Assembly: GCA_964575175.1 (NCBI GenBank)
Contig: CAZNPX010000006.1
Coordinates: 28,578 to 92,577 of the forward strand
Source of the DNA: an uncultured Hyphomicrobiales bacterium
GTDB lineage: Bacteria > Pseudomonadota > Alphaproteobacteria > Rhizobiales > Xanthobacteraceae
Direction of reading: 5' to 3'
Length of the DNA stretch: 64,000 nt
The position numbers and the translations under genes were made by a program. Within the stretch, counting starts at the first letter, position 1, and each line of letters opens with the position of its first letter. A model generated the notes under the pieces. That model was not told the DNA's origin and searched no databases. It worked only from the letters and a program-made list of their open reading frames with translations. Of the stretch, positions 35,640-62,964 are shown in pieces.

Positions 35640-35640
35640 G

Positions 35641-38046
35641 CTAACCTCCAACTTCCATTACGGCTCTTTCCGCAGAGCCTTTGCGTTTTCCGACGAAGGG
35701 ATCGAGCACCAGATCCGTCAGCGCTGCCGCGCCGAAGCTCCTGCCGCGGCGCTCGACGGCGACCTCGCCGTAAAGCGTGGTGCGCTGCGCCGGCGTTCTT
35801 CCGATCGAGGAGACGAGCCGCTCCATGTTCTCGGGGCTCAATTCCTGACCGTGCTGCGTGCCCGCGGCGCGCGAAATGCTTTCGTTCATCAAGGTGCCGC
35901 CGAGATCGTTCGCGCCGCCGTTGAGCAAGCTAGCGGCCCCCTCCGCGCCGACCTTCACCCACGACGCCTGGATGTTTCCGATCAGCGGATTGAAGACGAG
36001 CCTTGCGATCGCGTGCAGCAGGCGCACTTCGCGCCAGGTCGGCCCCTGCCGCGCCTGCCCGCGAAGCGACATCGGCGCTTCCATGTGCACGAAGGGCAGC
36101 GGCACGAATTCGGTGATGCCGCCGGTCCGCTGCTGCAAGTCGCGCAGCGCAAGCAGATGGCGCGCCCAGCTTATCGGGGCTTCCACATGCCCGAACATGA
36201 TCGTCGATGTGGTCGGCAGCCCGCAGCGATGCGCGGCTTCGATGACCGCGAGCCACTCGGCGGCGTCGAGCTTGTCAGGGCAGATTATCTGCCGGATGCC
36301 GTCGTCGAGAATCTCCGCGGCCGTTCCCGGCAGCGATCCCAGACCCTCGTCGCGAAGCATGCCGAGAAAGCGCGCGACCGGAATTCCGAGCGTGGCCGCG
36401 CCCTGCGATATTTCGAGCGGCGAGAAGGCATGGACATGCATCCCCGGCACTTCGTTCTTCACCGCGCGCACCAGATCGATATAGGTCTGGCCGGTGTAAT
36501 GCGGGTTGATGCCGCCCTGCATGCAGACTTCGGTCGCGCCGCGGCCCCATGCCTCGCGCGCGCGCCGCGCCACTTCGCCGAGCGAAATGTCGTAAGGCTT
36601 GCCGCGAAGATGGTCGTGGCTCTTGCCCTTCGAGAACGCGCAGAAGCTGCAGCGGTAGAGGCAGACGTTGGTGTAGTTGATGTTCCGGTTGACGACGTAG
36701 CGGACCATGTCGCCGCTCACGCGACGGCGCAGCTCGTCGGCCGCGGAAACGATCTCGGCGACGCCGGTATCCCGCGCGCCGAACAGCTTCACGATCTCCG
36801 CGTGGGCAAGCCGTTCTCCGGCCTGCGCGCGGTCGAGCAACTTGTCGTAGCTGCCCGGCGCTCCGCCGCTCACCGACGGCGACGGGATCGGTTCCAGCGA
36901 GCCGGGCGACCACGCCTCTTCGCGCGCGAAGCCTTCGCTGTCCGACAATTGCACCAGCTTCGAGAAGGGCTCCGCATCGAACCATTCGCGTTCGAGCGCG
37001 AAACGCGGATAGGCGGCAAGCCGCGGCACGAGCGAGAAGCCGGCCTGCTCCGTCATCGCGCGCAGCTTCGGGATCGCGGGCCACGCGGCTTCGGGATTTA
37101 CGTGATCCACCGTTACCGGGGAGATGCCGCCCCAGTCGTTGATGCCGGCATCGAGCAGGCGCGGATAGTCGGCGTAGCTCAGGTTCGGCGGCACCTGGAT
37201 GTTCATTTCGGCGCCGAAGACGAGGCGCGTGACGGCCGCGGTCCACAACAGATCGTCGAAGCTCGGCTCCTCCGACAGCGCGAGACGGGTGCCGGGCTTG
37301 GCGCGGAAATTCTGGACGATGATTTCCTGGATGTGGCCGTATTGCGCGTGCAGATCGCGCAGCGCGAGCAGCGATTGCACGCGCTCCAGCCGGGTTTCGC
37401 CGATGCCGATGAGAATGCCGCTGGTGAACGGCACCTTCTGCCGCCCGGCCGCGGCGATCATCTCGACACGAACCGCGGGGTCCTTGTCGGGCGAACCGAA
37501 ATGCGCGCCGCCGCGCTCGCACAGCCGCGGCGAAATCGTCTCCAGCATGATGCCTTGCGATACGCTGACGCGCCGCAGCCGCGCGATCTCTTCTTCCTCC
37601 ATCACGCCGGCGTTGACGTGAGGCAACAGCGTCGTGTTGCGCAGGACCAGTTCGCACACCGCCTCGAGATAGGCGTGGGTCGAGGCGTATCCCAAGGCGT
37701 CGAGCGCCTCGCGGGCCGCCGCATAGCGAAGCTCGGGCTTGTCGCCGAGCGTGAAGAGCGCTTCGGTGCAGCCCGCCGCCTCGCCCCTGCGCGCGATCTC
37801 CAGCACTTCATCGGGAGAGAGGTAGGCGCGCTTCAGCCGCTTCGGCGTTTTCGCGAAGGTGCAGTAGCCGCAGGTATCGCGGCACAACTGCGTGAGCGGT
37901 ATGAACACTTTGCGGGAATAGGAAATATTGGTGCCGTGGCCCTCGACCCGGAGCCGCGCCGCGCGCGCAAGCAGCGCCGCCAGCGGAAGGCTCTCGAATT
38001 TCGCCAGCAATTGCTCCGGCGTACAGGCTTCGAATTCCACGCTCAT
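35641..38046 (-). CDS. fbiC: bifunctional FO synthase FbiC (CofG+CofH fusion; 7,8-didemethyl-8-hydroxy-5-deazariboflavin synthase)
   Basis: 801-aa ORF with two radical-SAM motifs (CRDTCGYCTF and CLYRCSFCAF) in tandem CofG-like and CofH-like halves. Confidence 0.93.
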   Translation of the reverse strand: MSVEFEACTPEQLLAKFESLPLAALLARAARLRVEGHGTNISYSRKVFIPLTQLCRDTCGYCTFAKTPKRLKRAYLSPDEVLEIARRGEAAGCTEALFTLGDKPELRYAAAREALDALGYASTHAYLEAVCELVLRNTTLLPHVNAGVMEEEEIARLRRVSVSQGIMLETISPRLCERGGAHFGSPDKDPAVRVEMIAAAGRQKVPFTSGILIGIGETRLERVQSLLALRDLHAQYGHIQEIIVQNFRAKPGTRLALSEEPSFDDLLWTAAVTRLVFGAEMNIQVPPNLSYADYPRLLDAGINDWGGISPVTVDHVNPEAAWPAIPKLRAMTEQAGFSLVPRLAAYPRFALEREWFDAEPFSKLVQLSDSEGFAREEAWSPGSLEPIPSPSVSGGAPGSYDKLLDRAQAGERLAHAEIVKLFGARDTGVAEIVSAADELRRRVSGDMVRYVVNRNINYTNVCLYRCSFCAFSKGKSHDHLRGKPYDISLGEVARRAREAWGRGATEVCMQGGINPHYTGQTYIDLVRAVKNEVPGMHVHAFSPLEISQGAATLGIPVARFLGMLRDEGLGSLPGTAAEILDDGIRQIICPDKLDAAEWLAVIEAAHRCGLPTTSTIMFGHVEAPISWARHLLALRDLQQRTGGITEFVPLPFVHMEAPMSLRGQARQGPTWREVRLLHAIARLVFNPLIGNIQASWVKVGAEGAASLLNGGANDLGGTLMNESISRAAGTQHGQELSPENMERLVSSIGRTPAQRTTLYGEVAVERRGRSFGAAALTDLVLDPFVGKRKGSAERAVMEVGG

Positions 38047-38128: not shown

Positions 38129-38767
38129 TCACTCGACACGATCGCTCGGTCCCGTCGCCACGTCCGCGACATTGCGCATCGAATAGATCTCTCCAAGGCC
38201 GGCGTAATTGGGGCCGCCGATCCGGCACAACGGGCGGAGCTGCCGCGTGTCGATCTTGTTGTTCTCGCACAAGCCGTCGCGAACGTGAAACATCAATACT
38301 TCGCCGACCAGGAATTTCGAGCCGGTCTCGCCGAATGCGATGTCGTGCCGCAGCGCGCATTCCATACTGATCGGGGCCGCCGCAAGCCGCGGGACCGGGA
38401 CGCGATCGCTCGGCGCGGTTTCCAGATCGAGCAGCGTGGTTTCGCTGACGTCGTAGGGATGCGCGACCGCGCTGAGGTGAACCTTTTCGACCATGGTTTC
38501 GTCGCCGATGTTCACCACGAAACTCTTCCCTTCGAGAATATTCCGGGCGGTGTCCTTCTGCTCGCCGCTGCGAAGCCCGACATTGATCCCGATCATCGGC
38601 GGCTTCGACGAGACGAAGGTGAAGCAACTGAACGGAGCCAGATTGACGATTCCGGCAGCCGACAGCGTCGTCACCCAGGCGATCGGGCGCGGCACCACCA
38701 TTCCCGTCAGCAGCCGGTAAATGTCCTGGGGCGGCATCGGGGCCGGATTGATTTTCATTGCTCGCAT
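38129..38767 (-). CDS. flavin reductase-like (FMN-binding split-barrel) domain protein
   Basis: 212-aa ORF with LLTGMVVPRPIAWVTTLSAAGIVNLAPFSCFTFVSSKPPMIGINV, typical of the flavin-reductase-like domain. Sits directly upstream of fbiC. Confidence 0.8.
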   Translation of the reverse strand: MRAMKINPAPMPPQDIYRLLTGMVVPRPIAWVTTLSAAGIVNLAPFSCFTFVSSKPPMIGINVGLRSGEQKDTARNILEGKSFVVNIGDETMVEKVHLSAVAHPYDVSETTLLDLETAPSDRVPVPRLAAAPISMECALRHDIAFGETGSKFLVGEVLMFHVRDGLCENNKIDTRQLRPLCRIGGPNYAGLGEIYSMRNVADVATGPSDRVE

Positions 38768-38803: not shown

Positions 38804-39607
38804 TCAGGCCACCGACATCTTTTGCCGATCGGAATTCCCGAAAGGCGGCGCCGGCAGCGCGCCCTGCTTGCTCGAAATGATTCCGGCGCAACGCTCGGTG
38901 ACGATCTGCATGTGCTTGTAGAAGTTCTTGTCGTGGCCCTGCTTGTGAATGGCGGAGCTGAGCGCGGCGACGACATCGCCGGAGGCGTCCCGGATCGGGC
39001 AGCCGACGGCATAGATATCGACGAGATTCTCCTCGTCGGAGATCGAGTATCCGCGCTTCAGGACATTCCGCAGGTCGGCCACCAGCGAGCGGGTGTTGAT
39101 GATGCTGTAGGGGGTCAGGCGATTGAGCGAAAGCCGCGGCAACAGCTTCTGCAACTCGGCATCGTTCATCGCCGCGAGCAGGACCTTGCCGGCGGCGGTG
39201 GTATGCAGCTGCCCGGTCACGCCCGTGTTGATGCGCAGCACATACGGCTGCGCGCCCTGGATTGCGTACAGGTACAGCATGACGTTGTCGGAGCGCACGC
39301 AAAGATAGACGTTCAGCCCCTCGCTTTCGGCGAGCTGGTGCAGGTCGTCGTAGCAGGCGTTGTAGAGCGGGTTCGAGCGCGTGTATTTCTGGCCGATCTC
39401 GAAGGTGGTCGGCCCGACGCGGTATCGGCGGGTGGCCGGGTTCTGCTCGAGAAAACCGTCCTCGGCCAATGTCAGCAGCAGGCGCGACGCCTTGCTCTTA
39501 TCGAGCGAAAGCAGGCGGGCGACTTCGCGAACACCAAGCTCGGGACCATGCTCGGCAATGGTCTTCAGAATTTTCAGCCCGTGAGATAGCGACTGATTGA
39601 TTGCCAT
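38804..39607 (-). CDS. IclR family transcriptional regulator
   Basis: N-terminal wHTH (LKILKTIAEHGPELGVREVARLLSLDKSKASRLLLTL) plus an IclR effector domain. Confidence 0.85.
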   Translation of the reverse strand: MAINQSLSHGLKILKTIAEHGPELGVREVARLLSLDKSKASRLLLTLAEDGFLEQNPATRRYRVGPTTFEIGQKYTRSNPLYNACYDDLHQLAESEGLNVYLCVRSDNVMLYLYAIQGAQPYVLRINTGVTGQLHTTAAGKVLLAAMNDAELQKLLPRLSLNRLTPYSIINTRSLVADLRNVLKRGYSISDEENLVDIYAVGCPIRDASGDVVAALSSAIHKQGHDKNFYKHMQIVTERCAGIISSKQGALPAPPFGNSDRQKMSVA

Positions 39608-39616: not shown

Positions 39617-40399
39617 TTAGTGCCCCCCGGCAGCGCTGGCAGGTGTTGTTTTCTCCCAATACACGACTTTTCGATAGATCGCGCGAACGATGAAGTTGGC
39701 CGTGACGCCGATCAGCGACAGCGTGAAAACCGCGGTGAACATCGCGCCCACGTCGAAGTTCATGGACGACGACTGGATCAGGTGGCCGAGGCCCTGCCTC
39801 GCCGCCAGAAATTCGCCGACCACGGTACCGATCAGTCCCAGCACGACGCTGATCTGGAGACCGGCGAAGATCGAGTTGGCGGCGCTCGGCAGCTTCACGT
39901 CCCAGAAAATGAGGCGGCGCGGCGCCGAGAAGGCGCGATAGAGATCAACCAGATCGGGATTGGCCGAGCGCAGGCCCGTCATCGTGTTGATGAACATCGG
40001 GAAGAAGCAGATCAGCGCCACCAGAACGACCTTGAAGGTCATGCCGAAGCCGAACCAGACCAGCAGCAAAGGCGCGAGCGCCACCTTGGGCATCGACTGG
40101 AAGCCGACGACATAGGGAAAGACGATGCGCTCGGCCAGCACGAACTCCGCGACCAGCGCGCCGAGCAGGAACGCGACGATGCAGCCGAGGAAATATCCGA
40201 GCACCATCTGCGTCAGCGTGATTCCGATATGCGGGAAAATCAGGCCGCTCGAGTAGAGCACCCACGCCGACTTCGCGACCTCGATCGGCCCCGGCAGCAG
40301 GTAACTCGGAACGCCGAAGTATTTCGTGCCGAAGTGCCAGATCAGCAGGAAGCAGACAATGGAGAGGGTGGAAATCGAATATGCCTTGAGCTTGTTCAT
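39617..40399 (-). CDS. ABC transporter permease (NitT/TauT type)
   Basis: 260-aa polytopic ORF, paralogous by eye to the permease at 10146..10913. Confidence 0.85.
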   Translation of the reverse strand: MNKLKAYSISTLSIVCFLLIWHFGTKYFGVPSYLLPGPIEVAKSAWVLYSSGLIFPHIGITLTQMVLGYFLGCIVAFLLGALVAEFVLAERIVFPYVVGFQSMPKVALAPLLLVWFGFGMTFKVVLVALICFFPMFINTMTGLRSANPDLVDLYRAFSAPRRLIFWDVKLPSAANSIFAGLQISVVLGLIGTVVGEFLAARQGLGHLIQSSSMNFDVGAMFTAVFTLSLIGVTANFIVRAIYRKVVYWEKTTPASAAGGH

Positions 40400-40408
40400 C
40401 CCCTGCCC

Positions 40409-41188
40409 TCAATGCATCGCGGAGCTGGCGCCGAGCATCTGCCGGAGCTTGTTGGCGATCGCGCCGAATTCGGGGCTTGCCAGCGTTTCCAGCGTGCGCG
40501 GCCTCGGGATGTTCACGGGCACTTCCAGGATCTTCGTTCCCGGCCGTCCCGACAGTACGACGATCTTGTCCGCGAGGAACACCGCTTCGGGAATCGAATG
40601 CGTGATGAAGATCACCGTCTTGCGGGTGTTGAGCCAGATCGATTGCAGCTCGATGGTCATGCGCTCGCGCGTCAGCGCATCCAGCGCCGCGAAGGGCTCG
40701 TCCATCAGCAGCACCGCCGGATCGTGAATGAGCCCGCGGGCGATGCCCGCGCGCTGCTGCATGCCGCCCGAAAGCTCGCGCGGAAGATGATCGGCGAACT
40801 TGCTCAAGCCGACCAGCTCCAGCAGCTCGCGCGCCCTCGGCACATATTTCGCCGTGGACTGCCCGAGCGCGCGGATCGGCACCAGCACGTTCTCGATCAC
40901 CGTCTTCCATGGCAGCAGCGTGGGCTGCTGGAAGACGATGCCGACATCCGAGCGCGGGCCGACGATGGGCGACGCCGAGAGCTTGGCGACGCCGGACGCC
41001 ACCGGCATCAGGCCGCTCACCACCCGCAGCAGGGTCGATTTTCCGCAGCCGGACGAGCCGATCACGGCGACGAACTCGCCCTTGGCGACGGTGAGATCGA
41101 GGTTTTGCAGGGCCATCAGCGGTCCCTGCGTCGTCTGGTACACGACGGAGACACCGCTGATGTCGAGCGTAGGCACTTCGTTTCGCAT
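40409..41188 (-). CDS. ABC transporter ATP-binding protein
   Basis: Walker A GSSGCGKST, signature LSGGMQQR, Walker B LLLMDEPFAALD. Confidence 0.9.
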   Translation of the reverse strand: MRNEVPTLDISGVSVVYQTTQGPLMALQNLDLTVAKGEFVAVIGSSGCGKSTLLRVVSGLMPVASGVAKLSASPIVGPRSDVGIVFQQPTLLPWKTVIENVLVPIRALGQSTAKYVPRARELLELVGLSKFADHLPRELSGGMQQRAGIARGLIHDPAVLLMDEPFAALDALTRERMTIELQSIWLNTRKTVIFITHSIPEAVFLADKIVVLSGRPGTKILEVPVNIPRPRTLETLASPEFGAIANKLRQMLGASSAMH

Positions 41189-41220
41189 GAGGCTGTTACC
41201 CGGCTCTACAGAAGGCCAAC

Positions 41221-42312
41221 TTACTTATATGCCTTCGCCTTCTGCACGACTTCGTCGCGGCTGAAGCGGTTATACTCGGCCACGAACTGGTTAGTGTAGA
41301 GCGTGTCGAGCGGGATATTCGCGTTCTTTTCGATCAGCCCGCCGAGCTTCAGCGCATCGACGATCAGCTTCCACTCGTTCGCGGTGAATTCGCCGATATT
41401 CTTGTCGTTGCGGCCGAACAGCAGGTTCTCGATCCGCGGCTTCAGAATCGTCATTTCCCGCTTGATGTTTTCGGCTTCGGTGCCGGTGGTCGGGCGCATG
41501 GTCGGATATTCCGCCCAGAACGAGCGAATGCAGCCCTCGAGATTCGCCTGGCAGGCGACGGCGCCCTTCGACATCGCGCGTCCGAACTTCGCGATCAGGT
41601 CCGGCCGGCTCTTGATCATCTCATTGGTGTAGGGGAAGCCGTGGCTCGGGAGGCTCTGATATTCCTTCGGGAACGGGACCAGCCGGATCTTGGTGCCCGA
41701 CAGGCCGAGCGCGACGTGCATCGTGTCCCACAGGTTCAGCGCATCGACCTGCTTGCGGCGGAGCGCCTCGAAGGCAGGCACGCCGGAACCGACGCCCATC
41801 TTCTGCACGCTGTTCCAGTCGACGCCCTGGTTCTGGGCCATCGCCTGCGTCATCGCGATATTGCCGGAGGTCAGCGAGACGAAGCCGACGGTCTTGCCGT
41901 TCAGGTCGCCGAAAGCCTTGATCGGGCTTTCGTCGAGCACCGCAAGCTCCCAGATCGAGCGCGGCAGGTAATTATATGTGAACTGGATCGGAAAGTTCGG
42001 CTTTCCTTCCTGCCGCGAGATCGGCAGCGGCTCCAGGCTCGCGTAGGCGGTGTGGATCGTTCCCTTCAGGAGCTGGGGAATGATCACGCCGGAGCCGGTG
42101 AGCACGATCAGCTCGACGTCGAGTTTTTCCTCGTCGAAGAAGCCGAGCGCCTTGGCGAAGGTGAAATTCGCCACGCCCGAATTGATGGCCGACGGCCACG
42201 CAAAGACGAACTTGTCTTTTGCCTTCGCCTCGGGAGCGGCAATCACGGCCGCAACAGCCAGCGTCAGCATGGCTACCCGGCGGCTCAGACCGCCAAACAT
42301 CGGAAATTTCAT
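41221..42312 (-). CDS. ABC transporter substrate-binding protein (NMT1-like)
   Basis: 363-aa ORF with a signal peptide (...LAVAAVIAAPEAKA). First gene of the transporter-IclR-flavin reductase-fbiC-npdG string. Confidence 0.8.
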   Translation of the reverse strand: MKFPMFGGLSRRVAMLTLAVAAVIAAPEAKAKDKFVFAWPSAINSGVANFTFAKALGFFDEEKLDVELIVLTGSGVIIPQLLKGTIHTAYASLEPLPISRQEGKPNFPIQFTYNYLPRSIWELAVLDESPIKAFGDLNGKTVGFVSLTSGNIAMTQAMAQNQGVDWNSVQKMGVGSGVPAFEALRRKQVDALNLWDTMHVALGLSGTKIRLVPFPKEYQSLPSHGFPYTNEMIKSRPDLIAKFGRAMSKGAVACQANLEGCIRSFWAEYPTMRPTTGTEAENIKREMTILKPRIENLLFGRNDKNIGEFTANEWKLIVDALKLGGLIEKNANIPLDTLYTNQFVAEYNRFSRDEVVQKAKAYK

Positions 42313-42392: not shown

Positions 42393-42486
42393 GTTTGCCC
42401 CTGCTGTTTCGGCCGTATTTCGCAGCATAAAATGCCCGAATATTCGGCTTTTTTCGCTCGAACGGCGCCCTTTCCCGGCCGCCCGG

Positions 42487-45400
42487 TCAGGCACCCGGGA
42501 GCCCCTCCACGGCAGCCTCGATCGCCCGCGCAACCACCGTCACGGTGAGTTCCGTCTTGTAGTGATTGTGCTCGAGCGGCAGCGCGCCATAGACCGAGGC
42601 CGCCGCGGCCGCCTCGATGGTCTGCGGCGTCAGCGCGGCGCCGCGCAGGATTTTCTCGCTGTGAACCGCCCGCGCCGGCGTCGGCGCCACGCCGCCGAGC
42701 ACGATGGCGGCGTCCGTCAGTTTCTGCTTCGAGCCCATGAGCCGCACGGCGGCGGAGGCTTCCGCGAAATCGCCGCGCCAGCGGGCATATTTTTCATAAT
42801 GGAAAGACGCGCCGGCGCGCGGCTTCGGAATCTCGATCGCGGTAATCAGTTCGGCCGGTTCGAGCACCGTTTCGCCCGCCCATACATAAAGCTGCTCGAC
42901 GGGAATGCGCCGCGCGCGCTCCGGCCCCGCGGTAACGACCTGGGCATCGAGGCAGGCGAGCATCGGCGCGAGATCCGACACGCAAGGGGCCGCGCACCTG
43001 CCCGCGCCCATGATGGAATGGTGACGATTGTCTCCGAGCACCGCGTAACAGGGACAGGCCGGGCCGGAGAAGCGATAACACGGCGTGGCGGAACGAAAGA
43101 ACCAGCAGCGCTTCTCCTGACAGAGATCGCCGGCCACCGTCGCGCGGTTGCGGATCTGCTGGGTCGCGATCAGCGCAGCACCTTTCGCAAGGCCCAGAAA
43201 ATTCTTTTCGATCAACGCATGCTCGATGAGCGTGCTCACGGTGACGGCCGCGCCGACCTTCAGAAATTCGCCGGCCAGCACGATTTCCTTCACGCCCGGC
43301 GTGTTGCCATAGGCAATCAGTTTCGGCGGCCCATAGACACCCTGTCGGATGCCCGGCAGCAGATCGGTGCCGCCGCCCAGGAACCGGCTTCCTTCGCTGG
43401 CTGATGCCTGCGCCACCGCATCCGCGACCGTGCCGGCGACGACGGTTTCGAACGCGCGCACGCGCGGCCGCGAGCGGCCCAGATACTTGCCCGCCTTCTT
43501 CATCACCGGCGCCATCACGGGATAGAGTTTGCGGACCGCTGCGATCTCGGCGTTGAGCGGCCGCAGATAAGGCTTCAGCGAACGCGCGGGCCTGCCGTTC
43601 TGCGCGATCGCCGCGAGCACCGCCTCGGGCGTGATCGGCAACTTGTGAAAACGAACGCCCACCGCGTCGGCGACCGCATTGGCGACCGCCGCCACGGTCG
43701 CATTGATCGTGGGCTCGCCCGCGGCCTTGGCGCCGAAAGGACCCAGCGCGTCCGCCGTTTCGATGAAGTCGATCGAGATGTTCGGCGTGTCCGCGATCCG
43801 CGGCACACGATAATTGATGAGCGAGCGGTTCACCGGCCGGCCGTTCTCGAACACGACATCCTCGCTGAGCGCCATGCCGACGCCCTGCATGATGCCGCCG
43901 TAGGTCTGCCCTTCGAGCGCGGTCGGATTGATGACGCGGCCGACATCCTGCGCCGAGGCGATGTTGAGAATGGTGACGTGGCCGGTGCCGGGATCGACTT
44001 CGACTTCCACCGCCTGCGCGCCGAAGGCATAAGCCGCCGCATAGTTTCCGTATCCGGTCACCGGATCGGGCCGCTCGAGCCCGATCTCGTAGCGCCCCTC
44101 GACGCGCAGCGTGCCGAAACGCTGCCCGGCCTGGGACAGCGTCAGCTCGCGCCGCTCGTCGTGGGGATGTGAGAAGGTGCCGGCGTCATAGCCGATCTCT
44201 TCGGCGGCGATGTTCCACTCTTCCGCGATGCGCTGCCGCAAGCGCGAAACCAGCTCCTTGCCGGCGGCAATCGCGGCGTTTCCCGTGACGAAGGTGACGC
44301 GCGACGCCGCGCTGCCGAGATCGTCGGGCCCGAGCTCCGTGTCCATGTGAACGACGGAGATTCCTTCCATCGACACGCCGAGCGTCTCCGCCACGAGTTG
44401 CGCGAGAATGGTGTTCTGCCAGGTCCCGGCGTCGGCGGTCTGCGTGAAGATCTGCATTCGCCCGTCGGGTTGCAGCTCGACCGCGATGTTGGAGAAATTT
44501 CCTTCGGCATAAAGCACGCTGCCGCTCGGATGGATCATCGAGGCGATGCCGATGCCGCGATAGGGCGGCAGCTTACCTTTCTTGTCGGCCCAGCCGATCC
44601 GTTCCGCCGCCTTGCGCAGGCAATCGCTGAGGCCGCAGCTCGTGATCTTCCAGCCGAGCGGGGTCAGGTCGCCGGGCTGGTTGGCGATCCGCAAGCGATA
44701 CTCCACCGGATCCAGCTTCAGCCGCGCGGCGATTTCATCGACCTGGGTTTCGATCGCCCAGATGATTCCGGGAGCGCCCATTCCGCGATAGGAGCCGCCC
44801 GGCAACTTGTTCGTATAGACGAGTTTCGCGCGCACGCCTGCCGCGCCCACGCGATAGAGATTGGCGGTGCGCTGCCGCACGGCGGAAACGTAAACGGGGC
44901 CCATGTGCGTATAGGCGCCGTTATCGACAATCGCATCGACCGTGCGCGCGAGAATGTTGCCTTTCGCATCGACCGCGGTGCGCAGCGACATGGATTTCGC
45001 GTGGTCGCTCTTGCCGGCGATGTATTCCTCGTCCCGCGACAGCACGACCTTGACCGGCCTTCCGGTCCGCTTCGAAAGCAGTGCTGCAATCGCGATCTGC
45101 TCAGGCGCCTGCGACTTGCCGCCGAAGCCGCCGCCGATGGCGACGGGGCGGACGACGATCCTGCCGGGCTCCAGATCGAGCACGCGCGCAAGCTCCTTGC
45201 GCACGAAGAACGGCGCCTGGGTGCCGCACCACACTTCCAGCTTGCCGCTTGCCGCATCGAATGACGCGACCGCCGCATTGGTTTCCATGCAGACCGGCCA
45301 GACGACGCCATGCTCGAAGCGGCCCTCGACGATCAAGGCCGCATCCTTGAGTCCCTTCTCGACATCGCCGAGCGATATATCGACGAGCTGGGCGACATTC

Positions 45401-45864
45401 GCGGCGAGCTTGTCGCGGCGCGGGTGAATGTCGGGCGCATTAGGCGCAAGCGCGGCCTCCACCGTGACCGCGGCCCGCTGTTCCCTGTAGCGGATCGCGA
45501 CCGCGCGCACGCCGAGCCAGGCGGCCTGCGCCGATTCCGCCGCGACGGCCGCGACTTCTTCGCCGTAGAAGCGCACCTTGTCGGTCGCCATCGCGTGGCG
45601 GTCGGAATAGGCCGGGCCGTAATTCACGTAGCGCGAGCCGCTGAAATCCGATGCAACGACGGCATCGACCACGCCCGCCACGGCGAGCGCCGGCTTCAGA
45701 TCGATATCGAGAATGTCGGCGGCGGCGTGCGGGCTGCGCAGCACCGCGCAATAGAGCATCCCCGGGAGCACGATGTCGTGCGTGAACTGCGCGGCGCCGG
45801 TGACTTTCGTCCGCGCCTCGATCTGCGGCACGCGCTGCCCGATGGTGCCGAGCGGGCCGCTCAT
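42487..45864 (-). CDS. xanthine-dehydrogenase-family molybdopterin subunit fused to an FAD-binding (CoxM/HcrB-like) subunit with a Cys-rich insertion
   Basis: Start reset to ATG 45864 (ATGA overlap with the upstream 2Fe-2S gene). Residues ~1-750 form the Mo subunit (GGGFGGK, ...GAKAAGEPT...). A ~50-aa linker follows, then the FAD domain (FLGGGTDLLPGIRQG). No stop codon between the two parts. Confidence 0.85.
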   Translation of the reverse strand: MSGPLGTIGQRVPQIEARTKVTGAAQFTHDIVLPGMLYCAVLRSPHAAADILDIDLKPALAVAGVVDAVVASDFSGSRYVNYGPAYSDRHAMATDKVRFYGEEVAAVAAESAQAAWLGVRAVAIRYREQRAAVTVEAALAPNAPDIHPRRDKLAANVAQLVDISLGDVEKGLKDAALIVEGRFEHGVVWPVCMETNAAVASFDAASGKLEVWCGTQAPFFVRKELARVLDLEPGRIVVRPVAIGGGFGGKSQAPEQIAIAALLSKRTGRPVKVVLSRDEEYIAGKSDHAKSMSLRTAVDAKGNILARTVDAIVDNGAYTHMGPVYVSAVRQRTANLYRVGAAGVRAKLVYTNKLPGGSYRGMGAPGIIWAIETQVDEIAARLKLDPVEYRLRIANQPGDLTPLGWKITSCGLSDCLRKAAERIGWADKKGKLPPYRGIGIASMIHPSGSVLYAEGNFSNIAVELQPDGRMQIFTQTADAGTWQNTILAQLVAETLGVSMEGISVVHMDTELGPDDLGSAASRVTFVTGNAAIAAGKELVSRLRQRIAEEWNIAAEEIGYDAGTFSHPHDERRELTLSQAGQRFGTLRVEGRYEIGLERPDPVTGYGNYAAAYAFGAQAVEVEVDPGTGHVTILNIASAQDVGRVINPTALEGQTYGGIMQGVGMALSEDVVFENGRPVNRSLINYRVPRIADTPNISIDFIETADALGPFGAKAAGEPTINATVAAVANAVADAVGVRFHKLPITPEAVLAAIAQNGRPARSLKPYLRPLNAEIAAVRKLYPVMAPVMKKAGKYLGRSRPRVRAFETVVAGTVADAVAQASASEGSRFLGGGTDLLPGIRQGVYGPPKLIAYGNTPGVKEIVLAGEFLKVGAAVTVSTLIEHALIEKNFLGLAKGAALIATQQIRNRATVAGDLCQEKRCWFFRSATPCYRFSGPACPCYAVLGDNRHHSIMGAGRCAAPCVSDLAPMLACLDAQVVTAGPERARRIPVEQLYVWAGETVLEPAELITAIEIPKPRAGASFHYEKYARWRGDFAEASAAVRLMGSKQKLTDAAIVLGGVAPTPARAVHSEKILRGAALTPQTIEAAAAASVYGALPLEHNHYKTELTVTVVARAIEAAVEGLPGA

Positions 45865-46373
45865 GCTGCTTCGGCCACGGCGGCGCGAACCGCTTTCAAT
45901 ATCTGCGCGTAGCCGGTGCAGCGGCAGATGTTGCCCTGCAAGGCGTGCCGAATCGCCTCGTCGCTGGGATCGCGGCGCTTCGCAAGCAGCGCATAGGCGG
46001 ACATGATCATGCCGCTGGTGCAGAAGCCGCACTGAAATCCGCCGTGCTCGATGAACGCGCGCTGAAGCGCATGAAGCGCGCCGTTGCGCTCCAGCCCCTC
46101 GATGGTCTGCACGGAGGAGCCGGACACCGTGCAGGCGAGCGTGACGCAGGAGCAGACCGCGGCATCGTCCAGCATGACGGTGCAGGCGCCGCACTCGCCG
46201 CTGTTGCAGCCCACCTTGGTGCCGCGCAACTGCAAGCGGTCGCGCAGGATGTCGGCCAGCGATTCATGCTGCCCGACGACCAGTTCCCGGTCGGCGCCAT
46301 TCACCGACAGGCGAATTGCGGTCGATCCGCTTTCGCTTTCCGGTTGGCTCGGATCGGGCAACACGGCGCTCAT
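45861..46373 (-). CDS. (2Fe-2S)-binding small subunit (module B)
   Basis: Last 170 codons of a spurious 715-aa ORF. Motifs CNSGECGACTV and CGFCTSGM...CRCTGY. ATGA overlaps at both ends. Confidence 0.9.
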   Translation of the reverse strand: MSAVLPDPSQPESESGSTAIRLSVNGADRELVVGQHESLADILRDRLQLRGTKVGCNSGECGACTVMLDDAAVCSCVTLACTVSGSSVQTIEGLERNGALHALQRAFIEHGGFQCGFCTSGMIMSAYALLAKRRDPSDEAIRHALQGNICRCTGYAQILKAVRAAVAEAA

Positions 46374-48634
46374 CCCATCAATATTTTCTCGGCCGTAACC
46401 GGAAGATGCGTGATCCGTTTGCCGCAGGCGGCGGCGACCGCGTTCGCGACCGTCGCCGGCGGCTGCATGCAGGGCGGCTCTCCGACCCCCTTGGCGCCGT
46501 AAGGCCCCGCGACCGACGGATGCGTCACCATGATTACGTCGATCTGCGGCACATCCATGATCGTCGGCATCTTGTAGTCGGTCAGGTTGCCGTTCTGGAC
46601 GTGGCCGTTGACCATGATGAGTTCCTCGAACAGCGCCTGCCCGATGCCCTGCACTGCGCCGCCTTCGAGCTGGCCTTCGAGATAAGTCGGGTTGATCGCG
46701 TAGCCGACATCCTGGGCGACGACGTAGCGATGGATCGTCACCTCGCCCAACACTTCGTCCACGGAAACATCGGTCGCGTGAACGTGGAAGCTCGGCGACG
46801 GCCAGCTCGGCGAGAAATGGTTCTGCACGCGGGAGGCGTCGTGCTCGACCGCCGGCGCGATATAGGTCGCTTCCGCGATCAGCCCGCCACCGCCGGCATT
46901 GGCCTGCGTCGCCAACTCGGCAAACGAAATCTTCTTGTCGCCGTTCCAGAACGCCTTGGCACGCATTTCGAGCGCATCTTCCGCGACATTCAGCGCCTTG
47001 GCCGCGCGCGTGCGCAGCTTCGCGAGCAGGTCGCGCGCCGCCGCGCGCGATGCGTTGGCGACCGCGAACATGGTGCGGCTGCCCTGCGAACCGAAATCGT
47101 AGGGCGTGGTGAGCGAGTCGGCGCTGACGACGTTCACGTCCGTCAGGGCCATGCCCATTTCCTCGGCGACGACCTGCGCCGCGCCGGTCAAGGCGCCGGT
47201 GCCCATTTCGACCACGCCGACCATCATGGTCAGCGTGCCGTCCTGCATCAGTTTCAGATAAGCACCCGACGAGCCGCGCGAGGTCATCCACCAGCCGCAT
47301 GCTAGCCCCTTGCCGCGGTTGCGCGCGGGCCTGCGCTCGCTCCAGCCGATGGCGGCGGCGGCCTTTTCGAGGCACTCCGCAAGCCCGACGCTGGTCATCT
47401 TCTGCCCGTTCACGGCGGTGTCGCCCTCGCGCAGAATGTTGCGCATCCGGATTTCCAGCGGATCGATGCCGAGATCGTCGGCGATCATATCCATCTGCGA
47501 CTCGGAGGCGAAATTTGGCATGGGCCCCGAAGGCGCGCGCACCGAACCGTTCGGATGATTGTTGGTGTAGACCGCGATGCCTTCGATATGCGCGTTCGGA
47601 ATCCGGTACGGCCCGGAAAGGATCATGGTCGCGGTCGAGGCGACCAGCGGGCCGGAGCCCGAGCAGGCGCCCGCATCGACCACGATGCGGCCCTGCTTCG
47701 CGACGATCCGGCCGTCCCTGTCGACGCCGGTTTTCAACTCGATCGTTGCCGGCTGCCGAAACAGCGCGGCGGTCAATTCCTCTTCGCTGGTGGACATCAC
47801 GCGCACCGGCCGCTTGGCGGCGCGCGCCAGCGCCATCGCATAATGCTCCATGCCGAGCCGCAGCTTGCCGCCGAAACCGCCGCCGATGCCCGGCACGATC
47901 ACGCGGATATGCGACGGCGGCACGCCGAAGATCTCGGCCAGCGTGCTTTGCGTATCGAACAGGAGTTGCGCGTTGCACCACACCGTCGCCTGATCGGGAC
48001 CGGTCCATTGCGCGACCGCGACGCGCGGCTCGGTATAGCCGGCGTGAACCGGGCTGGTCCGGAAGGTGTGCTCGTAGACACGAAAGCTGTTGCGGAAGCC
48101 TTCCTCGACGTCGCCGAACTTGATGACGGTGCGGCCGCAGCGGTTGGCGTCGCGGGAAATGATCGGCGCCGCCTTCAGGTTCTGCCAGTCGGGATGCACG
48201 AGCGGCGCATCGGGCTCGAGTGCCGCGACGGCATCGAAGACCGCGGGCAGCGGCTCATAATCGACCTCGATCGCGCGCAACGCGCGCTCGGCGGCGTCGG
48301 GCGTATCGGCGGCAATCGCCGCGACCGCCTGGCCTACGTGATAGACGCGCTCGGTCGCGAATACCTCGAAGTCCTTGATGAAGTTGCCGAAGCGATTCAG
48401 CTTCTGGCTCGCGCCGGTGACGATGGTCCGCACGCCGGGCATCTTGCGCGCGGCGGCGACATCGATGCGCGTGATTTTCGCGTGCGCGTGCGGGCTGCGC
48501 AGCACGCGGCCGTGCAGCATTCCCGGCAGCGAAAAATCCGACGCATAGACCGCGGCGCCCGTCACCTTGCCGGCGCCGTCGAGCCGGTTCAGCCGTCTTC
48601 CGACGACGTGATAAATTGGAGGAGATGCGTTCAT
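46370..48634 (-). CDS. xanthine-dehydrogenase-family molybdopterin-binding large subunit (module A)
   Basis: Start reset to ATG 48634 (MNASPPIYHVVGRRLNRLDGAGKVTGAAVYASD). GGGFGGK and GAKGVGEPP motifs. ATGA overlap with the 2Fe-2S gene. Confidence 0.9.
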   Translation of the reverse strand: MNASPPIYHVVGRRLNRLDGAGKVTGAAVYASDFSLPGMLHGRVLRSPHAHAKITRIDVAAARKMPGVRTIVTGASQKLNRFGNFIKDFEVFATERVYHVGQAVAAIAADTPDAAERALRAIEVDYEPLPAVFDAVAALEPDAPLVHPDWQNLKAAPIISRDANRCGRTVIKFGDVEEGFRNSFRVYEHTFRTSPVHAGYTEPRVAVAQWTGPDQATVWCNAQLLFDTQSTLAEIFGVPPSHIRVIVPGIGGGFGGKLRLGMEHYAMALARAAKRPVRVMSTSEEELTAALFRQPATIELKTGVDRDGRIVAKQGRIVVDAGACSGSGPLVASTATMILSGPYRIPNAHIEGIAVYTNNHPNGSVRAPSGPMPNFASESQMDMIADDLGIDPLEIRMRNILREGDTAVNGQKMTSVGLAECLEKAAAAIGWSERRPARNRGKGLACGWWMTSRGSSGAYLKLMQDGTLTMMVGVVEMGTGALTGAAQVVAEEMGMALTDVNVVSADSLTTPYDFGSQGSRTMFAVANASRAAARDLLAKLRTRAAKALNVAEDALEMRAKAFWNGDKKISFAELATQANAGGGGLIAEATYIAPAVEHDASRVQNHFSPSWPSPSFHVHATDVSVDEVLGEVTIHRYVVAQDVGYAINPTYLEGQLEGGAVQGIGQALFEELIMVNGHVQNGNLTDYKMPTIMDVPQIDVIMVTHPSVAGPYGAKGVGEPPCMQPPATVANAVAAACGKRITHLPVTAEKILMG

Positions 48635-49107
48635 TTTCCGCTCATCGTTTGGGCGGCTTCGTGCACCGCTTCGACAATCTTGGTGTAGCCGGTGCAGCGG
48701 CAGAGCGTGCCGCACAGGCCTTCGCGGATTTCGTCATGGGTCGGCGAAGGATTTTCCTTCAGGAACCCGGCTGCCGCCATGATCATGCCCGGAATGCAAT
48801 AGCCGCACTGCACCGCGCCGCGATCGAGGAATGCCTGTTGCAGCGCGTGAAGCTTCTCGCCGTCGCCAAGACCTTCGATGGTCGTGATCTCGGCGCCACG
48901 GCATTGCGCGGCCAGAAGGATGCACGAATTGACCACGCGGCCGTTCATGAGCACCGCGCAGACGCCGCACTCGCCTTCCAGGCAGTTCGATTTCGCGCCG
49001 GTCAGCGTCAGCTCGTTGCGCAGCACATCGAGCAGGGTGTCGGACTCGTTCGCCCGCACCTCCCACTGCTCGCCGTTTACCGTCAGGGTCAGTTCATGCA
49101 TCGCCAT
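48631..49107 (-). CDS. (2Fe-2S)-binding small subunit (module A)
   Basis: Motifs CLEGECGVCAV and CGYCIPGM...CRCTGY. Start set to ATG 49107 (alternative 49101), 6 nt after the FAD-subunit stop. Confidence 0.9.
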   Translation of the reverse strand: MAMHELTLTVNGEQWEVRANESDTLLDVLRNELTLTGAKSNCLEGECGVCAVLMNGRVVNSCILLAAQCRGAEITTIEGLGDGEKLHALQQAFLDRGAVQCGYCIPGMIMAAAGFLKENPSPTHDEIREGLCGTLCRCTGYTKIVEAVHEAAQTMSGK

Positions 49108-49112
49108 CACCG

Positions 49113-49970
49113 TCACGAGATTTCCGCGCATTGCGAAATCGCGCGCTTCACCAGTCCTTCGACAACCTTGGTCCGATAGGCCGCGGAGGCGCGCGGATCC
49201 GAGCGCGGGCTGCACTCGGCCTTGGCCTGTTCCGCCGCGCGCGCGATCAGCGCCGCGTCGAGCTTCGCGCCCTCGAGCAGGCGCTCCGCCGCCTTCGCGC
49301 GCAACGGCCGCGGGCCGACCGCGCCGAGCGCGATGCGGGCGCTTTCGCAAATGCCGCCGGCGCTTACCCGAAGGCTTACCGCCGCCGACACCACGGAGAT
49401 TTCCATGGCCTTGCGGCGCCCCACCTTCAGGAACACGCTGCGCGCGCCCTCGCCGGGCCGGTCCAGCTCCACGCCCTCGATCAGTTCGGCGGGCGCGAGC
49501 GTGGTCTTTCCGGAAGTCACGAAGAGATCGTCGATCGCGATCAGGCGTGTGCCACCTGGTCCGCGCGCAACAATTCTTGCATCCAGCGCCAGCAAGGCGA
49601 CCGCGACATCGGCCGCGGGCGAGGCATTCGCGAGATTGCCGCCGACCGTGCCGACATTGCGGATCTGATGCCCGCCGACAACGCGCGCGGCGGCGCGAAG
49701 CGCGGGAAAATCCTGGCTCAGTCCGGAATGCAGTTCCGCGTCCTTATGCGTGCAGAGCGCGCCGATGCGATAGCCGCGCTCATGCGCCTCGATTCCGCGC
49801 AACGACGAAATGCCGGAAAGGTCGATCAGGTGGTCGGCCGTGCGAACGCCGCGGCGGATCTGGATCACCAGATCGGTGCCGCCGGCGATATAGCGCCAGC
49901 CGTCCTTCAATCCCGCCGCCAGTTCCAGCGCGTGCGCGGACGATTTTGCGGAATGCAGATTGAACCTCAT
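49113..49970 (-). CDS. FAD-binding subunit (CoxM-like) of molybdo-hydroxylase (module A)
   Basis: 285-aa ORF with IAGGTDLVIQIRRG and the canonical uninterrupted IRNVGTVGGNLANASPAADVAVALLALDA. Confidence 0.9.
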   Translation of the reverse strand: MRFNLHSAKSSAHALELAAGLKDGWRYIAGGTDLVIQIRRGVRTADHLIDLSGISSLRGIEAHERGYRIGALCTHKDAELHSGLSQDFPALRAAARVVGGHQIRNVGTVGGNLANASPAADVAVALLALDARIVARGPGGTRLIAIDDLFVTSGKTTLAPAELIEGVELDRPGEGARSVFLKVGRRKAMEISVVSAAVSLRVSAGGICESARIALGAVGPRPLRAKAAERLLEGAKLDAALIARAAEQAKAECSPRSDPRASAAYRTKVVEGLVKRAISQCAEIS

Positions 49971-49974: not shown

Positions 49975-51009
49975 TCAGTTCTTCATGTGCTTCGACGCGG
50001 GCTGCCACGCCTCGGAAACGAAACGCTCAAGCGTCTGCTGAACCGTGACGCCCTTTGCCGGCAGCGCCGAAAGAATGACGCCGCCGATTCCGGCTTCGAA
50101 CAGCGAGATCAATTGCGCCTTGATGTCCCCGGGCGTTCCCACGAGCGAGATGGCCCTGATCATCGCGTCGGAGATTTCCGCGCGGATGGCCTCGTAGGGT
50201 GCGGCACCCTCCTTGTAGGCGACATGCGCGACACTCTCGAGAACCGCCGCCGGAACGGCCAGACCCTGCTGCTCCAGCGTATCGAAATGCGTGCGGCCCG
50301 ATGCGAGCGTGCGCGCGGCGCGCAGCCGCAGCGCGTCGTAGGCGTCGGCCGGATTGTCGCTGAGCGATACGTTCAGGCGCGCGACCAGCCGCACGTCCTG
50401 CGGCTTGCGACCGGCGGCAACGGCCGTCTCCGCGATGCGGGCGGCGAAGGATTTTGCTTCCAGCGCATTGCCGCAGGCTTCCATGATGACGGCATCGGCA
50501 AGTCGCGCGCCGAGCTGCTGCACCTGCGGGCCGTTGCCCGCGAGCCAGACCGGCAAATCCGGCCGCGCCGGCTTGAAGCCGAGCTTGCCGGCCGCGAATT
50601 TCACGATCTCGCCGTCGTAGGAAACCTCGTCGCCGCCCGACATCGCGCGAATGAGTTCAATCGATTCACGCAGCGCGCGCACCGGCTTCGGCCGCGGCGT
50701 GCCCATCTCGGCAAAGCCGGAAACGCCGGCGCCAAGCCCGAGAATCGCGCGGCCGCGCGAAATGTCGTCGAGCGTATGGATCGCCATCGCCGTGAGCGCG
50801 GGGTGGCGGGAAAAGGGATCCGTGACGCAGGGACCGACATTGATCCGCTTCGTCTTCATCGCGATCACGGTGAGCAGCGAATAGACTTCGCGATAGAAGC
50901 GCTCGTCCGCCATCCAGACATCGGTGAAGCCGAGATCTTCAGCGAAGGCGGCAAGGTCCGCGTGAACGAACGGGTCCGAGTGTCCCGCCATCAGGATGCC
51001 GAGCGTCAT
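49975..51009 (-). CDS. LLM-class (luciferase-like) oxidoreductase, probably F420-dependent (Mer-like)
   Basis: 344-aa TIM-barrel LLM pattern (FTDVWMADERF..., ILGLGAG...). F420 specificity is inferred from context only. Confidence 0.8.
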   Translation of the reverse strand: MTLGILMAGHSDPFVHADLAAFAEDLGFTDVWMADERFYREVYSLLTVIAMKTKRINVGPCVTDPFSRHPALTAMAIHTLDDISRGRAILGLGAGVSGFAEMGTPRPKPVRALRESIELIRAMSGGDEVSYDGEIVKFAAGKLGFKPARPDLPVWLAGNGPQVQQLGARLADAVIMEACGNALEAKSFAARIAETAVAAGRKPQDVRLVARLNVSLSDNPADAYDALRLRAARTLASGRTHFDTLEQQGLAVPAAVLESVAHVAYKEGAAPYEAIRAEISDAMIRAISLVGTPGDIKAQLISLFEAGIGGVILSALPAKGVTVQQTLERFVSEAWQPASKHMKN

Positions 51010-52142: not shown

Positions 52143-52379
52143 AGGTGTCTCAATAATTGCGACAAATATCTCATTTTCTGAGACATCATTAGGAACGCCG
52201 GGAGAGTGAGTCAATCCCGGCGCGCGCAATACCTCTGCAAAGCCCGCGTCTGCGCGGCTTCGGCGTGCCTCTATTCGCAGCAGTTGGGGTGTTGCGCGCC
52301 TGGCGCGGAACGGGCGAAGCCCGCGGACGCGCGGGGTCCGCGGACTTCGGCCGGGCAATCGATGCCAGGCGCGAACGAC

Positions 52380-52400
52380 CCGCCGGCGACGTCGGCGGGC
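52380..52400 (-). terminator. GC hairpin just after the tctA stop (possible attenuator/mRNA stabiliser; no U-tract)
   Basis: CCCGCCG-N7-CGGCGGG. A second hairpin, CCGCGGAC-N7-GTCCGCGG, lies at 52321..52343. Confidence 0.3.
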
Positions 52401-52403
52401 GCG

Positions 52404-56784: not shown

Positions 56785-56826
56785 TCTCTACCACCGGGTT
56801 GGTTCTGGTTTCATCGACGGCACGGC

Positions 56827-59137: not shown

Positions 59138-59211
59138 TCGTGTCGTTCGATCCCAATCGAATCGGCTTCGAAGCCCTTCTTACCCCGCGGCAGAAACTCC
59201 GTCAGTCTCCG

Positions 59212-61178: not shown

Positions 61179-61632
61179 GGCTTTTCACCGCTTCGAGAAT
61201 TTTGATGTAGCCGGTGCAGCGGCAGATATTGCCGCGGAGAAAGTGGCGGATTTCCTCCTCGGTCGCGGACGGCTTCAGTTCGAGCAGCGCCGTGGTCGCG
61301 AGCACCATGCCCGAGGTGCAGAAGCCGCACTGCATCGCCGCATGATCGACGAACGCCTGCTGCACCCGGCTCAGCTTTCCATCCGCCGCGAGCCCCTCGA
61401 TGGTCGTCACCGACTTGCCGTCGGCATCGACGGCGAGCGTCGTGCAACTGCTGACCGGAAGCCGGTCGACGAGCACCGTGCAGGCGCCGCAGACCTCGAC
61501 GTCGCAGGATCGCTTGGTGCCCTTCAGCTTGCAGCGGTCGCGCAGCACGTCGACCAGAAGCTCGGAGGAATCGACCGTCAATTCCCGCGGCGACCCGTTC
61601 ACGATCAAGGAGATGGTTGTCGGATCACGCAT
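61171..61632 (-). CDS. (2Fe-2S)-binding small subunit (module C)
   Basis: Motifs CDVEVCGACTV and CGFCTSGM...CRCTGY. Confidence 0.9.
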   Translation of the reverse strand: MRDPTTISLIVNGSPRELTVDSSELLVDVLRDRCKLKGTKRSCDVEVCGACTVLVDRLPVSSCTTLAVDADGKSVTTIEGLAADGKLSRVQQAFVDHAAMQCGFCTSGMVLATTALLELKPSATEEEIRHFLRGNICRCTGYIKILEAVKSLV

Positions 61633-62506: not shown

Positions 62507-62509
62507 GGC

Positions 62510-62962: not shown

Positions 62963-62964
62963 CG

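Follow-up and report, generated by a model that had tools for sequence, protein, structure and literature searches.

Organization of the locus and of the fusion gene

The DNA analyzed here is a 64,000-nucleotide stretch (the window) of contig CAZNPX010000006.1, positions 28,578 to 92,577, from an uncultured Hyphomicrobiales bacterium of the Xanthobacteraceae. It carries a gene, referred to as L::M, in which the large, molybdenum (Mo)-binding subunit (L) and the medium, flavin adenine dinucleotide (FAD)-binding subunit (M) of a xanthine oxidase (XO)-family enzyme are joined in a single polypeptide. The reading frame runs on the minus strand from an ATG at 45864 to a stop codon at 42487-42489 and comprises 1125 codons plus the stop. 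All five Pfam domains of the translation score far above their gathering cut-offs (Table 1). MoCoBD_1 holds residue Q216 and a GGGFGGK motif at residues 244-250, and the Mo subunit runs on past MoCoBD_2 to about residue 757, a portion that includes E717 within GAKAAGEP. NCBIfam large-subunit profiles (XdhA and the alpha subunit of 4-hydroxybenzoyl-CoA reductase, 4-HBCR) reach residues 752-757 and medium-subunit profiles begin at about residue 803, which delimits a linker of about 45 residues.

An initial annotation of this DNA had described one 1125-codon frame with a full Mo subunit, a basic linker, and a full FAD domain, arranged in the reverse of the FeS-FAD-Mo order of eukaryotic xanthine dehydrogenase (XDH). 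Open reading frame (ORF), translation, Pfam matches, and domain order all bear this out. The peptides quoted at the time, namely the tail of the Mo part (...GVRFHKLPITPEAVLAAIAQ), the basic linker (NGRPARSLKPYLRPLNAEIAAVRKLYPVMAPVMKKAGKYLGRSRPRV), RAFETVV, and FLGGGTDLLPGIRQG, are all found in the L::M translation.

The gene that precedes L::M, S2, encodes a small subunit (S) whose sequence shows two Cys motifs, C-x4-C-x2-C-x11-C and C-x2-C...C-x-C. The start codon of L::M overlaps the stop codon of S2 in an ATGA, and an equivalent overlap joins the start codon of S2 to the stop codon of the L gene before it. S2 is translationally coupled by these overlaps at both ends. Together, the two products display the features of the XO family: three Mo domains, a putative active-site Gln/Glu pair, a partner with Fer2 and Fer2_2 domains, and a CoxM/XdhB-type FAD domain with GGGTD.

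Table 1. Positions of the fusion gene, its parts, and other features in the window (LLM, luciferase-like oxidoreductase; residue numbers refer to L::M)
Feature	Position	Strand	Basis or remark
L::M fusion gene (Mo subunit, linker, [4Fe-4S]-type FAD subunit), 1125 aa	42487-45864	-	ORF translation, five Pfam domains, independent contig
Ald_Xan_dh_C (a/b hammerhead), residues 22-129	45478-45801	-	Pfam PF01315, E = 1.6e-22, 80 bits
MoCoBD_1, residues 154-392	44689-45405	-	Pfam PF02738, E = 1.1e-68, 231 bits
MoCoBD_2, residues 421-694	43783-44604	-	Pfam PF20256, E = 1e-67, 229 bits
Conserved basic linker, residues 758-802	43459-43593	-	Alignments, conservation, AlphaFold2, linker profile
FAD_binding_5, residues 804-1015, GGGTD motif at 830-834	42820-43455	-	Pfam PF00941, E = 3.4e-34
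Predicted [4Fe-4S]-binding insert, C920-x8-C929-x9-C939-x17-C957	42994-43107	-	Invariant Cys in 69 members; alignment to 5y6q_B
CO_deh_flav_C, residues 1022-1117	42514-42801	-	Pfam PF03450, E = 2.6e-14
S2, small subunit with two [2Fe-2S] domains, 170 aa	45861-46373	-	Pfam Fer2 and Fer2_2; Cys motifs readable
Second, canonical enzyme of the operon (M 49113-49970, S 48631-49131, L 46370-48634)	46370-49970	-	Pfam, gene calls
LLM (Mer-like, probably F420-dependent)	49975-51009	-	Pfam Bac_luciferase; best NCBIfam matches all F420-dependent LLM families, below cut-offs
S-Me-THD-like (DUF917-type) protein	51012-52403		Next to the LLM gene
NMT1-type ABC transporter (binding protein 41221-42312, ATPase 40409-41188, permease 39617-40399)	39617-42312	-	Pfam NMT1, translations
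IclR regulator	38804-39607		Judged from translation
Flavin reductase	38129-38767		
fbiC	35641-38046		F420 gene
npdG	34965-35657		F420 gene, above NCBIfam cut-off
IclR regulator	56005-56787		Pfam
cofD	57429-58523		F420 gene
cofE	58385-59179		F420 gene
Third XO-family cluster (L from 62968 to the window end, partial, running off at 63999; CoxG-like 62513-63160; M 61628-62509; S 61174-61671; luciferase-like 60222-61184)	60222-63999	-	

Authenticity and distribution of the fusion

Bacterial XO-family enzymes are usually split into subunits, and the frame could in principle be a sequencing or assembly artefact in which separate L and M genes were joined by a lost stop codon or a frameshift. For the window itself, a public metagenome run provided an independent Logan assembly, in which a 28.8-kb contig (word depth 23.5) matches positions 42400-46400 with 0 mismatches and 0 gaps, and gene calling on it yields an identical 1125-aa product. 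The initial annotation had proposed a check for a frameshift or lost stop codon in the linker region; the assembled contigs show neither.

A search for orthologs with the same fusion had also been proposed there. In a scan of species-representative genomes, one for each of 185,579 species, two motifs from the Cys-rich insert picked out 227 relatives. The counts of related loci given below rest on the best 80 of these 227, with flanks of plus or minus 8 kb. The complete Mo-linker-FAD arrangement lies in a single frame in 70 of the 80 (BLAST-based scan), with 35-84% identity to the window protein and across at least seven phyla. Seven of the other ten loci are cut by contig ends. The last three (L021, L039, and L051, from three assemblies of metagenome-assembled genomes (MAGs), at least two of them long-read) have the gene split over several overlapping frames. 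At face value these breaks favor the artefact, although they look more like indel errors or pseudogenes than like L and M genes that are truly separate. Each of the 120 top protein clusters also carries the fusion and linker in one frame, and the conservation of the linker across members indicates that it is under selection. The artefact reading is rejected on the identical independent assembly and on the conservation across loci and protein clusters; the chance that it is correct is negligible.

One database entry begins at a different point. P0022, a 478-aa protein from an unclassified Streptomyces (51-kb contig), is annotated by NCBI as 'FAD binding domain-containing protein' and starts inside MoCoBD_2. 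Its start may have been called wrongly, the gene may be truncated, or the protein may truly be split at another position.

The closest hosts belong to Hyphomicrobiales/Xanthobacteraceae (80-84% identity). Further alphaproteobacterial hosts include Ferrovibrio and marine Rhodospirillaceae-like Alphaproteobacteria, and the beta- and gammaproteobacterial hosts include Ramlibacter, Variovorax, Rubrivivax, and Pseudomonadales. Among actinobacteria, the gene occurs in Streptomyces, Pseudonocardia, Amycolatopsis, Actinomadura, Geodermatophilus, and Nanopelagicales. Nitrospinota, Rokubacteria/Methylomirabilota, Limnocylindria (Chloroflexota), and Gemmatimonadota complete the range. A tblastn search of 72,556 plasmids found no fused homolog; the few matches with high coverage (about 29% identity) fall on L and M genes that lie side by side and are annotated as separate.

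Protein databases give the same picture. When the C-terminal end of the Mo part was used as a query together with the linker and the FAD part, the proteins retrieved included many that combine MoCoBD_2 with FAD domains, and their linkers align with invariant positions. In a full-length search, the best 120 clusters all measure 1115-1287 aa and contain all five Pfam domains. More than 100 clusters with the identical five-domain layout are 50-83% identical over 97-100% of the L::M length, the nearest among the matches listed being 83% identical. Cluster names include 'molybdopterin-dependent oxidoreductase', 'molybdopterin cofactor-binding domain-containing protein', and the JGI label 'CO/xanthine dehydrogenase Mo-binding subunit/CO/xanthine dehydrogenase FAD-binding subunit'. 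P0182 is the sole cluster among the best 120 that is named '4-hydroxybenzoyl-CoA reductase subunit alpha'. The window protein shares the marks of this family, namely a chain of about 1120 aa, five Pfam domains in order, an R..YP motif in the linker, and an adjacent S gene, and its architecture shows no difference from that of the database members.

Fusions of FAD and Mo cofactor subunits have been noted in hundreds of organisms, bacteria included, although without the domain order (PMC6147048). Full-text literature searches, which also covered the combination of LLM, DUF1177, and XDH genes, yielded no characterized member, and a Foldseek search of the PDB found no chain that spans Mo and FAD domains in this order. 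L::M is thus a member of a broad, database-known family for which no member with a known substrate or a solved structure was found. The earlier description of the architecture as unusual does not hold up against the 227 relatives, the fused state of 70 of 80 loci and 120 of 120 top clusters, the JGI naming, and the published survey. The domain order is indeed the reverse of that in eukaryotic XDH; what lies behind it, however, is an independent fusion of neighboring genes and no rare event.

Some genomes carry the gene pair twice. Loci L030, L036, and L043 come from the same MAGs as L003, L002, and L001, respectively, and hold a second S-L::M paralog that is 44-45% identical in the linker-FAD region. 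The paralog shares a contig with the orthologous copy in three of three MAGs; the distance lies between a few kb and about 20 kb in two of them and is roughly 600 kb in the third. No second S-L::M copy lies within the window.

The functional unit and the other XO-family enzymes of the window

An S gene stands beside L::M in 71 of the 80 loci, directly upstream in nearly all of them and downstream in two. A natural single-chain form, P0237, was found in two sequencing runs (L082:5647-9510 and L083:5930-9793). This 1287-aa FeS-Mo-FAD (S-L-M) triple fusion is 50% identical to the window L::M, and its N-terminus is 54% identical to S2. It represents a third single-chain arrangement of the three XO-family modules. 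Because the S gene adjoins L::M in nearly all loci and the S-L-M fusion exists, the functional unit is S plus L::M, a two-gene enzyme.

The window contains two other XO-family enzymes, and both encode L and M separately according to Pfam and gene calls, as had been stated at the outset. One of them lies upstream in the same operon. Its genes follow a coxMSL-like M-S-L order and form a complete set with its own S and L. This upstream M-S-L is a separate, independent enzyme, and the canonical M gene belongs to it.

The initial annotation had offered a rationale for the fusion, a fixed stoichiometry between the specialized FAD domain and its own Mo subunit, which amounts to protection against mis-pairing with the operon's canonical FAD subunit. 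A canonical M gene is indeed present in the same operon here and in the closest relatives L001-L005 and in L041. These are, however, the only loci among the 80 with the tandem M-S-L-S-L::M arrangement, and S-L::M stands alone in most of the others, with no further M, S, or L gene nearby. Since the fusion is present in most genomes without the tandem arrangement, that arrangement does not explain it. The canonical M also has its own S and L partners. This rationale is therefore not sustained, and we consider it highly improbable.

The linker as a conserved and probable structural element

The linker was initially described as a basic stretch of about 50 residues. Length and charge stand, given the 45 residues delimited above and a direct count of 12 Arg/Lys and one acidic residue in the quoted 47-residue stretch 756-802. 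The view of the linker as a mere basic tether, however, finds no support, since its core is conserved like the catalytic domains and is modeled as a helix. The linker core follows the pattern (K/Q)PW(K/R)RPYN(L/A)E(V/I)A..R..YP...FP.(L/M)(K/R)K.G, and its central R..YP is kept even in Actinomycetota. In an alignment of 69 full-length members from all phyla found, conservation of the core is 0.59, compared with 0.58 for the whole protein.

AlphaFold2 modeled the entire L::M chain with a mean predicted local distance difference test (pLDDT) score of 90 and a predicted template modeling (pTM) score of 0.92. The high pTM means that the Mo and FAD parts are confidently placed relative to each other in the model. 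Linker residues 770-795 appear as a single 26-residue helix with pLDDT values of 67-89. A linker profile searched against 1.84 billion representative proteins gave five matches, all in fused proteins or fragments; with so short a profile, and with the family collapsing at 50% clustering, this number says nothing about the size of the family. The same search never placed the motif at the end of a free L or the start of a free M subunit. We infer that the linker is probably a structural element, which would pack on the enzyme surface, and not a floppy tether.

Predicted cofactor sites and the [4Fe-4S]-type FAD domain

Residues expected at the cofactor sites are conserved throughout the 69 members. 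E717, G244, G831, D834, C920, C929, C939, and C957 are present in 100%, and Q216, within TQAPFF, in 99%. We take Q216 and E717 to be the equivalents of Gln767 and Glu1261 of bovine XO, so that E717 would be the putative catalytic Glu and Q216 the putative active-site Gln. Among the segments of L::M, conservation peaks in the Cys-rich insert, with a value of 0.75 compared with 0.58 overall.

The FAD part had been singled out early as specialized, and the insert confirms that view. It spans about 40 residues of the FAD domain and carries four Cys, as in PaoB and HcrB. By sequence, the closest solved chains are 5y6q_B (the medium subunit of Methylobacillus aldehyde oxidase, E = 2e-40), 1rm6_B (HcrB), and 5g5g_B (PaoB), in that rank, all of which we take to be FAD subunits bearing an extra [4Fe-4S] cluster. 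In the alignment, each of the four insert Cys of L::M has its counterpart among the four loop Cys of 5y6q_B. In HcrB, three of four loop Cys align with the insert and one ligand position aligns with a His. The HcrB profile alone spans the Cys-rich insert in one piece, whereas other FAD-subunit profiles break there. The FAD domain is accordingly classed as PaoB/HcrB type, with a predicted extra [4Fe-4S] cluster.

Relationship to characterized enzymes

The Mo part is closest to 1rm6_A, the alpha subunit of 4-HBCR, with 379 bits compared with at most 266 for any other solved chain. Foldseek places the same chain first in the PDB, with a target-normalized TM-score of 0.93 at 33% identity; its alignments are sequential, and only the Mo part of L::M was aligned because no PDB chain has this domain order. 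This chain belongs to HcrABC of Thauera aromatica (PDB 1RM6/1SB3), the closest solved relative of the Mo part. HcrABC also has an extra [4Fe-4S] insert at the same place in the FAD subunit, and a small subunit with two [2Fe-2S] clusters. The gene order S-L-M is also that of the hcrCAB and hbaBCD operons, which encode 4-HBCR. The 4-HBCR profile is the top NCBIfam match for both the Mo and FAD parts and a close second for S2, and P0182 bears the name of this enzyme.

These likenesses raise the possibility that L::M and S2 form a dehydroxylating 4-HBCR that runs reductively and receives electrons from ferredoxin at its [4Fe-4S] cluster. The three subunit scores nonetheless fall far below the NCBIfam equivalog cut-offs (alpha 543.6 vs 994.55, beta 154.5 vs 404.55, gamma 181.4 vs 257.8), and identity is just 33%. 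In the [4Fe-4S] loop, the Cys are spaced as in 5y6q_B and not as in HcrB. The conserved predicted helix links alpha and beta parts that HcrABC has as separate chains. No CoA-ligase genes and no genes of the anaerobic benzoyl-CoA pathway were seen in the window neighborhood or among the neighbor families that recur within plus or minus 8 kb at the 80 loci. The hosts, moreover, are mostly aerobes and include Nanopelagicales, Ramlibacter, Variovorax, and Streptomyces, which are generally regarded as aerobic. A 4-HBCR identity is thus very unlikely.

A broad-specificity aldehyde oxidoreductase or oxidase of the type of E. coli PaoABC (PDB 5G5G) or of the aldehyde oxidase (AOX) of Methylobacillus sp. 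KY4400 (PDB 5Y6Q), with L and M fused, comes closer but is still unlikely. The FAD part ranks the Methylobacillus medium subunit first and PaoB third among solved structures, and the [4Fe-4S] Cys pattern agrees with the former. The Mo part, however, scores only 172-175 bits against PaoC or the AOX large subunit, compared with 379 against 4-HBCR. Both enzymes consist of three separate subunits. PaoC and PaoA profiles give 279.8 against a cut-off of 1180 and 147.6 against 322, and the gene order is S-L-M and not the S-M-L of PaoABC. PaoABC is exported by the twin-arginine translocation (Tat) system, whereas the N-terminus of S2 (MSAVLPDPSQPESESG), as read from the sequence, has no twin-arginine motif, so that the enzyme is predicted to be cytoplasmic. 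Its genes are also linked to transporters and to ring-cleavage or hydrolase genes and not to detoxification contexts.

Other members of the superfamily were compared as well. The [MoCu] CO dehydrogenase profiles score well below their cut-offs (TIGR02416, 274.6 vs 991.15; NF040766, 305.5 vs 950), as does the eukaryote-type XDH/AOX profile TIGR02969 (160 vs 1912). Eukaryotic XDH and AOX (one FeS-FAD-Mo chain) and Rhodobacter capsulatus XdhAB (an FeS-FAD chain and a Mo chain) share Mo, FAD, and two [2FeS] domains as well as the occurrence of subunit fusions. They differ in the opposite order of the domains (Mo-FAD here, with FeS on a separate chain; FeS-Mo-FAD in P0237) and lack the [4Fe-4S] insert. 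In Foldseek comparisons with these enzymes, only the Mo part was aligned, over about 780 columns.

Every NCBIfam equivalog match of the enzyme lies below its cut-off, and an attempt to assign a substrate through equivalogs failed for this reason. In function, the enzyme would resemble 4-HBCR, PaoABC, and Methylobacillus AOX, which are XO-family enzymes with a fifth redox center. It belongs to none of these families because it misses their cut-offs.

Proposed mechanism and origin

Current evidence supports, with a probability of roughly 85%, the explanation that L::M is the genuine large subunit of a two-gene XO-family molybdo-flavo-iron-sulfur enzyme that it forms with S2. S2 would carry two [2Fe-2S] clusters. 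L::M would carry the Mo cofactor in its N-terminal 757 residues, with Gln216 and Glu717 at the active site, and would bind FAD at the GGGTD motif, the extra [4Fe-4S] cluster being held by Cys920, Cys929, Cys939, and Cys957. A substrate would be oxidized, or reduced, at Mo. By analogy with solved relatives, electrons would pass from Mo through [2Fe-2S] II/I of S2 to FAD, then to the [4Fe-4S] cluster, and finally to an external one-electron partner such as ferredoxin; O2, NAD(P)+, or another compound may serve as the acceptor, and the flow would be reversed if the enzyme is a reductase. In Alphaproteobacteria, this hydroxylation or oxidation may be coupled to the Mer-like, probably F420-dependent LLM and to the DUF1177 protein. 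The simplest origin of the fusion would be the loss of a stop codon between adjacent L and M genes in an S-L-M operon with the 4-HBCR gene order, after which the fusion would have spread as a family.

Several points weigh against this explanation. The metagenome evidence is made up of assembled contigs, in which a rare stop-codon variant would be invisible, and not of raw reads. The AlphaFold2 model covers the L::M chain alone, was built from an 86-sequence alignment, and contains neither S2 nor cofactors, and the pLDDT of the [4Fe-4S] loop is only 62-80. For all members, the proposed cofactor content, electron path, catalytic direction, and substrate derive from homology. Conserved neighbors differ between phyla, and the family may not share a single substrate.

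Gene neighborhood and a possible link to F420

The surroundings of S-L::M fall into several recurrent contexts. In Alphaproteobacteria, an LLM gene and a DUF1177 gene lie upstream of the pair; an LLM gene adjoins S-L::M in 38 of the 80 loci and a DUF1177 gene in 24. A betaproteobacterial context consists of LysR, S-L::M, an NMT1-type ABC transporter, ferredoxin reductase, Rieske oxygenase, and a glyoxalase-type dioxygenase. It is found at loci L007-L015, L020, and L034, which belong to Betaproteobacteria, unclassified Pseudomonadota MAGs, and one Ferrovibrio. In Actinomycetota (L052-L072), S-L::M is followed by an Amidohydro_2 enzyme. The LysR/Rieske-type and Amidohydro_2 contexts suggest ring hydroxylation followed by cleavage or hydrolysis.

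Transport genes are a further theme. A homolog of the NMT1-type binding protein of the window lies directly downstream of L::M in 17 loci, and TctABC transporter genes are among the window neighbors of the cluster. Taken together, the neighborhoods suggest that an aromatic or N-heteroaromatic compound is imported and then hydroxylated or oxidized in the cytoplasm.

A gene for a Mer-like luciferase-family oxidoreductase stands beside each XO-family cluster of the window (49975-51009 and 60222-61184). The LLMs find their best matches in F420-dependent families, although at scores below the cut-offs. The S-Me-THD-like protein scores far under the thiohydantoin desulfurase equivalog cut-offs and is conserved only in the closest relatives L001-L005.

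In the window, the F420 genes npdG, fbiC, cofD, and cofE flank the cluster. Genes for the biosynthesis of this cofactor also occur within 8 kb of L::M at several alphaproteobacterial loci (L001/L043, L030, L031, L035, L036, and L040) and at L082/L083, where the S-L-M triple fusion is encoded. The gene order at L082 reads GntR, LLM, DUF1177, S-L-M, CMD, fbiC, LLM, cofE, cofD, cofC. What F420 does physiologically in Proteobacteria is among the open questions of a 2021 review (PMC8498797). One tentative proposal, a lead at this stage, which we hold to be possible though on balance improbable, is that S and L::M, the Mer-like LLM, and the DUF1177 protein form an unrecognized F420-linked catabolic module for an imported (hetero)aromatic compound. 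In its boldest form, the FAD/[4Fe-4S] end of L::M, with its basic linker, would exchange electrons with F420 itself.

Implications for the XO family and for F420 biology

As a matter of enzyme architecture, the fusion is one more wiring of the modular XO family that was already present in databases, and it changes nothing that is known. The annotation of the locus is settled: L::M is one gene and no frameshifted pair, and two complete enzymes, instead of one with a spare FAD subunit, are encoded in the operon. Its makeup of only two chains, or of one in the natural S-L-M form, would make the S plus L::M system convenient for expression and structural work on [4Fe-4S]-bearing XO-family enzymes.

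The family to which L::M belongs is a broad clade, with no characterized member found, in abundant freshwater, marine, and soil lineages, among them Nanopelagicales, marine Rhodospirillaceae-like Alphaproteobacteria, Ramlibacter/Variovorax, and Streptomyces. That F420-type oxidoreductases and genes for F420 biosynthesis repeatedly lie near L::M provides a testable lead on why some Proteobacteria make F420. If true, the F420-linked module would give this cofactor a physiological role in Proteobacteria.

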